Positions 1,383 to 4,237 of a DNA stretch of 16,600 nucleotides are shown here, piece after piece. Position 1 is the first letter of the stretch, and the number at the start of each line of letters is the position of its first letter. The DNA is taken from IMG/VR virus record IMGVR_UViG_2654587792_000017; one strand, 5' to 3'. The notes beneath the pieces are model-generated. The model was not told where the DNA came from and ran no database searches. It was given only the letters and a program-made list of their open reading frames with translations. The DNA is from a virus (taxonomy: Duplodnaviria > Heunggongvirae > Uroviricota > Caudoviricetes). Both the position numbers and the translations under genes were made by a program.

Positions 1383-1748
1383 ATGGCTGTGCTTCGTACG
1401 TTACCGGGCAGAATCAAAACTCTGAACACCCGGCGGGTGAATGTCCTGAAGGGTGAACAGCGTCGGGTCAGTGGTAGTGCCCGGGTTTCCCTCAAGCGTC
1501 GTATCTGGCTGAGGGATGCCGGACAGTGCTGTCTCTGTGGGCGTGTGGTTGACCTTTGTGACAGTGAACTTGAGCACCGCATTGCACTTCAGTTCGGTGG
1601 TGGTAATGAGGAGACGAATCTCTGGACGCTCTGTACCGAATGCCATCGACAAAAGTCTGCTCGTGAAGCGGCGAGTGGTATGCCAGACCCGACGCTGCCG
1701 GAGGTGTCCGGAGGTAGTGGCAGAGCGGACGACATCATCGGACTGTAA
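1383..1748 (+). CDS. HNH endonuclease (packaging-associated)
   Basis: 121 aa with a Cys-rich HNH motif: CCLCGR...CDSELEHRIALQFGG...NLWTLCTECHRQK. GGAGAGGA Shine-Dalgarno 8 nt before the ATG. It sits immediately upstream of the putative cos and terminase small subunit, as in HK97-like phages. Confidence 0.85.
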   Translation: MAVLRTLPGRIKTLNTRRVNVLKGEQRRVSGSARVSLKRRIWLRDAGQCCLCGRVVDLCDSELEHRIALQFGGGNEETNLWTLCTECHRQKSAREAASGMPDPTLPEVSGGSGRADDIIGL

Positions 1749-1756
1749 CCCGACCC

Positions 1757-1809
1757 GGGGGGGGGTATCATCCGGCGTAAAAAAAGATCGCTTTGGACAC
1801 CGCCCCCCC
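1757..1809. other. G9 and C7 homopolymer tracts flanking a ~37 bp spacer; candidate cosN/cos-cleavage region
   Basis: Direct reading: nine G at 1757-1765 and seven C at 1803-1809, with an A7 tract between them, in the non-coding gap between the HNH gene and terS. The position is consistent with a cos site. This is inference only. Confidence 0.3.
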
Positions 1810-1840
1810 TCTCACGCAGAGAAAAAATTCCCGTTTCAGG

Positions 1841-1968
1841 GCAGTTAACATGTTAACTGGCTGTCCGGGCATTTTTGCGGTTTTTATCTTTATTATTCAG
1901 TTTGTTGTGCGGAAAAAATGTTAACTGGCTTTTTCAGCAAATGTTAACCAGGCAGCAGTTAACATTTG
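1841..1968. promoter_or_regulatory. Cluster of GTTAAC-centred direct and inverted repeats with A/T tracts; candidate cosB-like terminase small-subunit binding sites
   Basis: Five GTTAAC hexamers in about 125 bp. GTTAACATGTTAAC at 1844-1857; the 13-mer ATGTTAACTGGCT repeated exactly at 1850-1862 and 1918-1930; a perfect inverted repeat AAATGTTAAC (1939-1948) / GTTAACATTT (1958-1967) with a 9-bp spacer; phased T/A tracts between them. It lies immediately upstream of terS. Confidence 0.5.
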
Positions 1969-2039
1969 CGGCATGAGACGCCGGGAAAAATGGGCTGAAC
2001 CATACCCGGCTGAGTGCGTTCTGGACCCGGGAGGAGGCT

Positions 2040-2579
2040 GTGCTGACAACGCAAAAACGAAAATTTGCGCTGGCGCTCATGTCCGGGAAAAACAAAACAG
2101 CGTCAGCCATTGCCGCTGGTTATTCGGCGAAGACCGCCAGGGTTAAAGGCTCGCAGCTGGCAAAAGATCCGGAGGTGCTTGCGTTTATAGCCCGTAAACA
2201 ATGCGAGACGGTGGAGGTGGATGAGGTTCCTGTTTACCGGCAGAAAAAATCAGAGCAGGAGGATAAACCCCGTCGCCGTGAGGCGGCTGCAATACCACAG
2301 CCGGACGAAAACAATCCGGAGATGCCACCGTCCGCGGTGATGTCTCCTGGTATTGAATATATGGAGGATGGTCTTCCCGATCCGGTGAAAGCGATGGGGC
2401 GTCTTCTGGTGGAGAACATTAATACCGACCCCAGGCTGGCGCAGTTCACGCACCATAAAAAAGGGGATGCCGGTAAAAAATCGGCAAAAGGTGACGCGGC
2501 GAAAAAAGCGGCTAACCGTTTTGCGGTGCCACCACCACCCCGCCTGGTGGTGAATAATGATAATGAGGGCAACGGATGA
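2040..2579 (+). CDS. Terminase small subunit
   Basis: 179 aa, GTG start with GGGAGGAGG Shine-Dalgarno. N-terminal helix-turn-helix-like region MLTTQKRKFALALMSGKNKTASAIAAGYSAKTARVKGSQLAKDPEVLAFI typical of P27/HK97-type small terminase subunits, with a low-complexity C-terminal tail. The stop overlaps the terL start (ATGA). Confidence 0.85.
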   Translation: MLTTQKRKFALALMSGKNKTASAIAAGYSAKTARVKGSQLAKDPEVLAFIARKQCETVEVDEVPVYRQKKSEQEDKPRRREAAAIPQPDENNPEMPPSAVMSPGIEYMEDGLPDPVKAMGRLLVENINTDPRLAQFTHHKKGDAGKKSAKGDAAKKAANRFAVPPPPRLVVNNDNEGNG

Positions 2580-4237
2580 TACCTGTGTGGAGCACGGCCT
2601 GCCCGGACTGGGCAGAGCGCCTGAAAAAGGGGCTGTCGATTATTCCGGCTCCGATTTATCCGGACCAGGCTGCACATGCACTGGCGATTTTTAAACAACT
2701 GCGAATTGTGGATGCACCGGGTAGCCCGACATTCGGGGAGTCCTGTGCACCGTGGGTGTTTGACCTGGTGGCGGCCCTGTTTGGCTCCTACGATGCGCAG
2801 ACCGGTGTTCGCCATATCAAGGAAGTGTTTATCCTTATCCCCAAGAAAAACAGTAAGTCCACGCTGGCTGCGGGGATCATGATGACGGCGCTGTTACTGA
2901 ACTGGCGGCAGGCGGCGGGCTACACCATTCTGGCCCCGACCGTGGAGGTGGCGGCTAACGCCTTCAACCCTGCCAGGGATATGGTACGACGGGACGATGA
3001 TCTGGATGACCTCTGTCAGGTGCAGACACATATCCGGACCATCACCCATCGGGTGACGGACACCACCCTGAAGGTGGTGGCAGCCGATCCGAATACGGTG
3101 TCCGGTATCAAGTCCGTGGGGACACTGATTGATGAACTGTGGCTGTTTGGCAAGCAGTACAAGGCGGAAGACATGCTACGTGAAGCCATCGGCGGGCTTG
3201 CCTCCCGTCCGGAAGGGTTTGTGGTGTATACGACCACCCAGTCGAATGAACCGCCCGCCGGGGTGTTCAGACAGAAACTGCAGTATGCCCGGGATGTCCG
3301 TGACGGCAAAATTCATGATCCGCACTTTCTGCCGGTGATTTTTGAGCATCCTCCTGAAATGGTGGAAAGCGGGGCTCACCTGCTGATGGAAAACCTCGCC
3401 ATGGTTAACCCGAATCTCGGTTATTCGGTGGATGAGGCCTTTCTGTACCGGGAGTACCGTAAAGCCCGGGAGGCTGGTGAGGAAGCATTTCGTGGCTTCA
3501 TGTCAAAACACGCCAATGTGGAAATCGGTCTTGCCCTGCGTTCTGACCGCTGGGCGGGCGCGGATTTCTGGGAGCAGCAGGGCAGGCGCGTCAGCCTGGA
3601 CGATATCCTGCAGCGCGCTGATGTGGTGACGGTGGGGATTGACGGCGGGGGCCTGGATGATCTGCTGGGAATGTACGTGACTGGCCGTGACAGGGAAACC
3701 CGCGAATGGCTGGGCTGGGGCCATGCCTGGGTGCATGAAACCGCGGTGGTCAGACGGAAGAGTGAGGCATCCCGGTTTCAGGATTTTGTGGCCTGTGGAG
3801 ACATGACGATTGTCCGTCGGGTCGGGGATGACACGGCGGAAGTGGCGGAGTATGTGCGTCGTATTCATGAGGCTGAGTTACTGGATCATATCGGTATTGA
3901 CCCGTCAGGTGTGGGGCAGATTCTGGATTCACTGGCGGAAGCCGGGATCCCCGATGAGAGTGTGGTGGGGATAAGCCAGGGCTGGAAGCTGGGCGGGGCC
4001 ATCAAAACCACCGAGCGCAAACTGGCTGAAGGGGTGCTGATTCACGGTGATCAGCCCCTGATGGCCTGGTGTGTCGGTAATGCCCGGGTGGAGCCTAAAG
4101 GTAACGCCATTCTTATCACCAAACAGGCCAGCGGACGGGGAAAAATTGACCCGCTGATGGCGCTGTTCAATGCGGTCTCCCTGATGTCCCTTAACCCGGA
4201 ACCGAAAAAGAAAGAATATGCGGTTTTTTTCATATAA
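2576..4237 (+). CDS. Terminase large subunit
   Basis: 553 aa with a Walker A-like ATPase motif (LIPKKNSKSTLAAG) and a C-terminal nuclease-like region. Start overlaps the terS stop. The size and position fit an HK97-family TerL. Confidence 0.92.
   Translation: MIPVWSTACPDWAERLKKGLSIIPAPIYPDQAAHALAIFKQLRIVDAPGSPTFGESCAPWVFDLVAALFGSYDAQTGVRHIKEVFILIPKKNSKSTLAAGIMMTALLLNWRQAAGYTILAPTVEVAANAFNPARDMVRRDDDLDDLCQVQTHIRTITHRVTDTTLKVVAADPNTVSGIKSVGTLIDELWLFGKQYKAEDMLREAIGGLASRPEGFVVYTTTQSNEPPAGVFRQKLQYARDVRDGKIHDPHFLPVIFEHPPEMVESGAHLLMENLAMVNPNLGYSVDEAFLYREYRKAREAGEEAFRGFMSKHANVEIGLALRSDRWAGADFWEQQGRRVSLDDILQRADVVTVGIDGGGLDDLLGMYVTGRDRETREWLGWGHAWVHETAVVRRKSEASRFQDFVACGDMTIVRRVGDDTAEVAEYVRRIHEAELLDHIGIDPSGVGQILDSLAEAGIPDESVVGISQGWKLGGAIKTTERKLAEGVLIHGDQPLMAWCVGNARVEPKGNAILITKQASGRGKIDPLMALFNAVSLMSLNPEPKKKEYAVFFI

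Follow-up and report, generated by a model that had tools for sequence, protein, structure and literature searches.

A probable HK97-type cos site with a conserved GTTAAC array between the HNH endonuclease and small terminase genes of an Escherichia coli prophage

Genes and sequence features of the HNH-terS gap

The DNA analyzed here, referred to as the window, is a stretch of 16,600 nucleotides from IMG/VR record IMGVR_UViG_2654587792_000017, and its non-coding gap at 1749-2039 is bounded on one side by an HNH endonuclease gene (1383-1748) and on the other by a small terminase gene, terS (GTG start, 2040-2579), followed by the large terminase gene, terL, and downstream of that by a protease-capsid fusion gene and a portal gene. 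Pfam, PHROG and the map of open reading frames place HNH directly upstream of the gap and terS and terL directly downstream, which is the gene order of HK97 (Table 1). The sole match of TerL among solved structures in the PDB was HK97 TerL (6z6d, E=1e-9, residues 84-534), and the similarity of the HNH protein to HK97 gp74 was marginal (E=0.06). TerS had no BLASTP similarity to HK97 gp1, which itself has no Pfam hit, so that the two belong to different families; matches of TerS to the solved small-terminase chains 4zc3, 2cmp, and 3zqp were weak. The N-terminal part of TerS, where the PF03592 match lies, is taken to be a predicted DNA-binding domain; between the window and Salmonella phage FSL SP-016, conservation is good over the first 67 residues, above the level of the remainder (52% identity overall). 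TerS of the window has 179 residues, and in most close relatives the tblastn match spans 561 nt, or about 187 codons, suggesting a short deletion in the window gene, presumably in a linker. Just upstream of HNH are a gene for a TonB C-terminal-domain protein (668-1009; Pfam E=6e-15) and a small minus-strand open reading frame (1141-1341) at a position annotated as YlcI/YnfO family in relatives, and both are cargo of the late region in these prophages.

Prophage DNA with 95–99.7% identity to the gap occurs in 1244 of 5426 complete E. coli genomes, a single genome having as many as seven copies, and the gap also matches 94 phage records, mostly of the long-tailed Stx1a/Stx2c Pankowvirus type, in which copies are approximately 95–98% identical. 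The packaging module sits in long-tailed Stx1/Stx2c prophages of EHEC as well as in prophages of ST131 and other lineages.

The tracts and repeats from which a cos site was originally predicted, i.e. G9 at 1757-1765, C7 at 1803-1809, and five GTTAAC hexamers, were all found where they had been placed, as was an exact 13-bp direct repeat, ATGTTAACTGGCT, at 1850 and 1918. The hexamers start at 1844, 1852, 1920, 1943, and 1958, spanning 1844-1963. An inverted repeat given as 10 bp proved to be perfect but longer, at 12 bp (1937-1948 and 1958-1969). GTTAAC occurs eight times in the window against 2.1 expected, a count reached in 0 of 200 shuffles, and five of the eight fall within 120 bp. An asymmetric 10-mer, CAGTTAACAT, used in both orientations, is a better description of the repeat unit than the hexamer, and site 5 matches site 1 over 11 bp. 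A/T tracts do exist in the gap, but the phasing claimed for them did not hold up, with p of approximately 0.02–0.07 at a period of 10.0 and nothing at 10.5 or 11. A scan of 1749-2039 for the IHF consensus WATCAANNNNTTR with at most one mismatch gave no match, and promoter and terminator counts in the gap were at chance level. Between sites 3 and 4 (1926-1939) there is a small palindrome around a T-run, reading GCTTTTTCAGC in the window, CGACTTTTTCG in one related copy (L027), and TACCTTTTTGGTA in the island copy considered below (L028), in which the change looks compensatory.

A coding or structural role for the gap was weighed against these features. An open reading frame at 1850-1924, preceded by a weak AGGG, could encode a peptide that is small and hydrophobic (MLTGCPGIFAVFIFIIQFVVRKKC), and G9 and C7 are able to pair, which could point to a hairpin or a structured RNA. 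The frame of 24 codons is shortened, however, to 14 codons in L027 and 4 in L028, and it was rejected as not conserved; Rfam returned no match at E up to 1, and folding gave z = -0.7 for DNA at 1750-1815 and -1.8 for RNA of the whole gap, so that a peptide or RNA appears extremely improbable.

Table 1. Coordinates of genes and predicted cis-acting features at the HNH-terS gap of the window
Feature	Position	Strand	Basis or remark
HNH endonuclease gene	1383-1748	+	Pfam HNH E=5e-6; PHROG 589; counterpart of HK97 gp74 by position
G-run (G9), conserved upstream cos element	1757-1765	+	Present in 104/104 unique IMG/VR relatives
Spacer, variable sequence, fixed 29-nt length	1766-1794	+	Comparison across lineages
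Cleavage core GGACACCGCCCCCCCT / CTCACGCAGAGAAAAAATTCCCG (slash, cut), with invariant A6 tract at +12 to +17	1795-1833	+	Conservation across relatives
10-nt 3′ cohesive end CGCCCCCCCT	1801-1810	+	PhageTerm and record ends (Lys8385Vzw), Bcep176 terminal repeat, HK97 alignment
GTTAAC sites 1 and 2, perfect 18-bp palindrome CAGTTAACATGTTAACTG	1842-1859		ATG at 1850 is the ancestral terS start
A/T-rich spacer with conserved block TTTTTATCTTTATTATTCA, possible bend (putative)	1860-1913		Partly conserved even in the island
GTTAAC site 3 (AAATGTTAACTG)	1916-1927		Conservation in the island and long-type copies
GTTAAC sites 4 and 5, 12-bp perfect inverted repeat GCAAATGTTAAC / GTTAACATTTGC	1937-1969		Repeat search, conservation
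Variable leader with terS ribosome-binding site GGAGGAGG (2029-2036)	1970-2039	+	Outside the conserved cis signal
terS, Terminase_2 family	2040-2579	+	Pfam PF03592 E=1.6e-8, residues 2-57; PHROG 641
terL, HK97-type large terminase	2576-4237	+	Pfam TerL_ATPase and TerL_nuclease

The cut site and the upstream G-run

Ends of packaged DNA have been mapped in a phage that is near-identical to the window across the HNH-terS gap. In the Stx1 phage Lys8385Vzw (MT225100), PhageTerm applied to virion reads assigned a cos mechanism with 3′ cohesive ends and CGCCCCCCCT at the genome end (PMC7946995), and this published cohesive sequence is identical to window 1801-1810. The database record ends in ...CCGCCCCCCCT (...GACACCGCCCCCCCT) and starts with CTCACGCAG (CTCACGCAGAG). 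The C7 tract (1803-1809) is therefore part of the sticky end itself, lying inside the 10-nt overhang, and G9 is a separate element whose 3′ end is 35 bp from the overhang, which does away with the idea that the two tracts flank the nick. The ends assigned to the site in the window are transferred from this relative, combining a PhageTerm software result with database record ends, and the 3′ polarity is that of the literature. From the sequence match we infer a top-strand nick at 1810/1811 and a bottom-strand nick at 1800/1801; staggered nicks in the core would very probably generate the 10-nt 3′ cohesive end CGCCCCCCCT, with C7 as the sticky end.

More distant phages place an end at the homologous position. 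The record of Burkholderia phage Bcep176, whose TerS is 36% identical to that of the window, has the 10 nt CGCACGTTCC at both ends as a terminal repeat, and in HNH-to-terS orientation this repeat lies directly 5′ of CTCACGCGCAGAAAATTTTCCC, the motif that follows window 1810, with CTCACGC(N)CAGAAAA common to both after the repeat or cut. The HK97 record ends in ...ATGACCGCCGCCAAA, and when the ends are placed in register ACCGCCNCC coincides with window sequence. Similarity of the HK97 and window cut regions is partial, comprising ACCGCCNCC and the upstream G9, and downstream sequence differs. In HK97 the overhangs are 3′ and 10 nt long, and the HNH protein gp74 stimulates cleavage at cos. Alignment with HK97-like cos regions, one of the checks proposed with the original prediction, brought the HK97 end into register and G9 to a similar spacing, and the predicted HK97-like layout of HNH, site, terS, and terL is borne out by gene order, by the HK97-type TerL, and by mapped ends in relatives. 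We put at roughly 0.8 the probability that this E. coli prophage is packaged by an HNH-assisted system of the HK97 type whose cos site, at which replicated DNA would be cut to genome length, lies in the HNH-terS gap.

Terminase_2 small terminases are best known from phages that package from pac sites. The TerS of the window is of this family (PF03592, E=1.6e-8), and the database record of one relative was noted as having a “circularly permutated genome”, both of which would be consistent with a headful pac site such as that of SPP1/SF6 phages, whose small terminase is of the same Pfam family. That same database note also mentions cohesive ends, however, and PhageTerm on the near-identical phage returned cos with 3′ ends rather than headful packaging (PMC7946995), the 10-nt terminal repeat of Bcep176 lies at the homologous place, and HNH and an HK97-type TerL are present; a pac site is thus very unlikely.

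The core is common to 20 other Enterobacterales loci, Salmonella phage FSL SP-016, and one Acinetobacter MAG contig; it is near-invariant across Enterobacterales, the Acinetobacter MAG, and Bcep176, with the block from +1 to +27 relative to the cut invariant even in the latter two. A scan of IMG/VR with the core pattern returned 120 loci, 104 of them unique. Among these loci the overhang is fixed at 10 nt and varies by substitution, with CGCGCCCCCT found 61 times, CGCCCCCCGT 21 times, and CGCCCCCCCT 14 times. All 104 unique loci have a G-run of at least five G, ranging in length from 5 to 13, and in 97 of the 104 it lies 28–29 nt from GGACACC. In the island (L028) and in loci of Serratia, Erwinia, and Pantoea, the intervening spacer has an unrelated sequence but retains its length. 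Comparable elements occur as G9 29–30 nt upstream of GAC in HK97, as GGGGAGGGGCGGG and then TCAAATCT (as in HK97) 28 nt before GACTGCCCGCCCC in SfV, and as the G-rich GGGGAGGGGG 30 nt before GACCGC in Bcep176, and the terminase-less island likewise keeps its G-run. Because spacer length is held while sequence is free, the G-run can be regarded as an element held at a set distance in cos sites of this class without regard to TerS family, and since it is common to HK97, SfV, and Bcep176 whatever the type of TerS, it may be read by TerL or HNH. It is on the side packaged last, making a cosQ-like role or a role in docking TerL or HNH a natural guess. We would tentatively consider the G-run an accessory element and candidate target of TerL or HNH, perhaps with a cosQ-like function in termination.

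The significance of the G and C tracts derives from this conservation and not from their occurrence, as runs of G or C of at least 7 are no commoner in the window than in shuffled sequence. Proneness of the homopolymers to slippage, also part of the original prediction, fits the G-run, with its range of lengths among relatives, but not the C-run, which varies by substitution rather than length. In the PPompW prophages (L032, LC567822.1 1146-2604) an IS110-family element, ISEc20, lies inside the G-run with G7 on one side and G5 on the other, and lysis genes and HNH are absent between the tRNAs and cos. The insertion probably cripples packaging, and the G-run may be an insertion target for ISEc20. 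Of phages 1717, WGPS4, and WGPS8, which had been suspected of lacking HNH, 1717 was inspected and has the gene; the alignment to 1717 breaks at HNH because of a longer G-run (G11).

Conservation and origin of the GTTAAC array

Copies in IMG/VR fall into two classes, a short type with one or two hexamers and a long type with five, the latter at +34, +42, +110, +133, and +148 from the cut, and no complete long-type copy was found to lack a hexamer. All 30 hexamer columns are constant across 66 unique long-type copies, whereas 54 of the 112 other columns in 1834-1975 vary. Columns of the leader at 1970-2039 vary among long-type copies. The arrangement GT(A/T)AAC-AT/GT-GTTAAC at +34/+42 occurs in nearly all relatives, and in Proteus and Pantoea, in which terS starts further downstream, GTTAAC is kept at the equivalent place in non-coding DNA. 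In short-type loci with a GTG TTA ACA start (L034, L057, L063, L068, and L151 from IMG/VR), five of six unique sequences have an extra GTTAAC inside terS at approximately +275 from the cut, about 235 bp past the start, which could be a distal site or chance.

A second line of evidence comes from a 9.56-kb island, the FUJ80154/MS6198 island, which in E. coli FUJ80154 is located between cspD/yljB and clpS and flanked by imperfect 73-nt direct repeats (about 1536-11166 of L031, NZ_AP024687.1 3249500-3272000; cos copy at L028 1165-1375). The island was found in 50 complete E. coli genomes. Its genes include an integrase, regulators, an Icd-like protein, DUF4222, a primase-helicase, an SSB pseudogene, a small ORF, and PHROG 1561, together with a ClpP/major-capsid fusion gene, and it has no terS, terL, HNH, or portal gene. 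That its capsid gene might be a copy of the window capsid gene was considered and rejected, as there is no similarity. Its make-up resembles that of a phage satellite equipped with a capsid gene of its own. A helper-type cos lies at one end, in which the G-run, the core, and all five hexamers are preserved at unchanged spacing; compared with the window, hexamer columns match at 30/30 and other columns at 72/113 (Fisher p=9e-6), and similarity stops at approximately 1967. An element that needs the terminase of another and yet preserves exactly these blocks marks them as cis-acting signal. With the hexamers both invariant among phages and kept in this terminase-less island, the five-hexamer array is very probably a cis signal.

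The history of the array can be read in part from terS start codons. In nearly all enterobacterial loci the gap is short, at approximately 105 nt, and the first codons of terS, at +40, are ATG TTA ACA (Met-Leu-Thr) in the context GGAGGG-TGTAAAC-ATGTTAAC, with a GTAAAC or GTTAAC half-site 8 bp before the start hexamer. As terS starts with ATGTTAAC in most relatives, the second hexamer of the array marks where the ancestral gene started. Approximately 190 extra bp with three more hexamers are present in the E. coli lineage; the old ATGTTAAC remains at 1850, followed by two more copies of ATGTTAAC and one of CAGTTAACAT, and the working terS start is now GTGCTGAC at 2040. Bases 1941-1972 resemble the terS 5′ end, with offset 99 giving the top score among 380 offsets (19/32 identities), although local alignment for duplication was marginal (p of approximately 0.02). 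This stretch may be a decayed copy of the terS 5′ end, for which evidence is modest, and at least part of the 190-bp expansion would then have been derived from duplication of that end. A 100-bp tandem duplication of the terS 5′ region was rejected, just the 32-nt stretch being convincing.

Such a history suggests that the array could be a functionless relic of serial partial duplications of the terS 5′ end (ATG TTA AC), with the core alone as the cos signal. Consistent with this are the ATGTTAAC start codon at +40 in about 20 species, the resemblance of 1941-1972 to the terS 5′ end, and the fact that short-type phages manage with one or two hexamers. A relic would not account, however, for hexamers that are invariant while their flanks have diverged, that are kept in the island where there is no terS to translate and in non-coding DNA of Proteus and Pantoea, or for site 5, which has no counterpart in terS but has its 11-bp match to site 1. 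We regard the relic explanation as unlikely.

Recognition of the site and comparison with known packaging systems

TerS is the favored candidate to bind the GTTAAC hexamers, a role that we consider somewhat more likely than not. Most likely, the N-terminal DNA-binding domains of a Terminase_2 TerS oligomer would bind the array and position TerL and HNH on the core, with packaging then running rightward through terS and terL. The array, with five CAGTTAACAT-type sites at +34 to +153 on the terS side, would in this case act as a cosB-like initiation signal. HK97, with its unrelated TerS, lacks the hexamers and has the G-run and core, which fits a modular picture in which TerL and HNH read the core and TerS reads the array.

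An alternative explanation could be that the hexamers are operators for a phage or host factor regulating late or terS transcription, or are bound by HNH or TerL, with TerS reading the A-tract block at +6 to +27 instead. In HK97, TerS recognizes one A-tract site of 15 bp (+15 to +29), the +1 to +27 block is unchanged as far away as Bcep176 and the Acinetobacter MAG locus, and palindromic hexamers are typical of dimeric regulators; by analogy with HK97, the true target of TerS could be the invariant A6 block at +12 to +17, with the hexamers left to another protein. This seems doubtful because the gap has no promoter-like or terminator-like signal above chance, the island keeps the sites with no late genes downstream, and the TerS of the window has no relation to HK97 gp1, its matches being to another family of small terminases. 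Recognition of the array by TerS is therefore retained here as the preferred reading.

Comparison with HK97 shows a shared framework and a different TerS module. In common are the order HNH, cos, terS, and terL, a homologous terL, a 10-nt 3′ overhang, G9 at 29–30 nt upstream of GAC, and an A/T tract just downstream of the cut. HK97 differs in having one TerS site with the terS start at +50, as opposed to five GTTAAC extending to +153 and a terS start at +230 in the window, and in the unrelated families of its gp1 TerS and the Terminase_2 TerS of the window. Classification with HK97-family TerS that use a single A-tract site would thus not describe the window, which has a Terminase_2 TerS. Essentially the same site occurs in Lys8385Vzw and the Pankowvirus-type EHEC prophages BP-4795, 2851, 1717, and YYZ-2008.

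With lambda, the site has in common an element on the last-packaged side, a staggered-nick site, and a repeat array that includes an A/T-rich stretch and precedes the small-terminase gene. The lambda site differs in its 12-nt 5′ overhang and lack of HNH, whereas homologues of the window site have 10-nt overhangs that are 3′ by PhageTerm, and in its 16-bp R elements (R3/R2/R1) and IHF site, compared with repeats of 6–10 bp with a palindromic core and no IHF consensus in the window. Lambda gpNu1 and gpA are not known to be related to the terminase proteins of the window. The layout converges on the logic of lambda cosQ, cosN, and cosB, without the 5′ overhang or IHF site. For the island, the closest analogy is to the E. 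coli PICI EcCICFT073, likewise an integrase-bearing island with a helper-type cos and no terminase genes. EcCICFT073 keeps cosQ and cosN and has its own cosB read through Rpp, whereas the FUJ80154 island keeps the phage-type array of five GTTAAC, and carries a capsid fusion unrelated to that of the window.

Taken more broadly, the data raise the possibility, which we advance tentatively, that HK97-type cos sites are modular, with a near-universal unit of G-run, 28–30 bp spacer, and cut joined to an interchangeable TerS-specific module, a cosB that grew by duplication, and a copy taken by a satellite. If this is true, the unit read by TerL and HNH spans phages of E. coli, Shigella, and Burkholderia and the Acinetobacter MAG contig; the TerS site at first overlapped the terS start and expanded in E. 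coli to five sites, producing a lambda-like cosB by convergence; and a 9.6-kb satellite bearing a capsid gene copied the whole signal for packaging without a terminase of its own.

The window has a cos site of a known kind, whose 10-nt end was reported earlier from a near-identical phage. The paper on Lys8385Vzw gives the 10-nt cohesive sequence alone, without the G-run, core, or GTTAAC array (PMC7946995), packaging is not covered in the paper on phi330, and in the literature searched we found no description of the fixed-distance G-run, the extended core, or the five-site array and its start-codon origin. Conservation of the repeat array exceeds expectation. The HK97 model, with its single known TerS site, would gain an array for recognition at several sites, although the system is not of a new kind. 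The full cis signal, at about 1757-1967, and the exact end can help to orient and close phage genomes, to tell intact from crippled prophages, e.g. those with ISEc20 in the G-run, to design tools for transduction of cos plasmids, and to find satellites riding on these phages.

A further likeness is seen at the left end of HK97 (L005 1-60), where the context of the terS start, AAGGTGTTGACATATG, resembles that of the present family, GGAGGGTGTAAACATG (window 1836-1852), with the start at +50 from the cut in HK97 versus +40 in the family. This may represent residual homology of the leaders despite unrelated TerS proteins.
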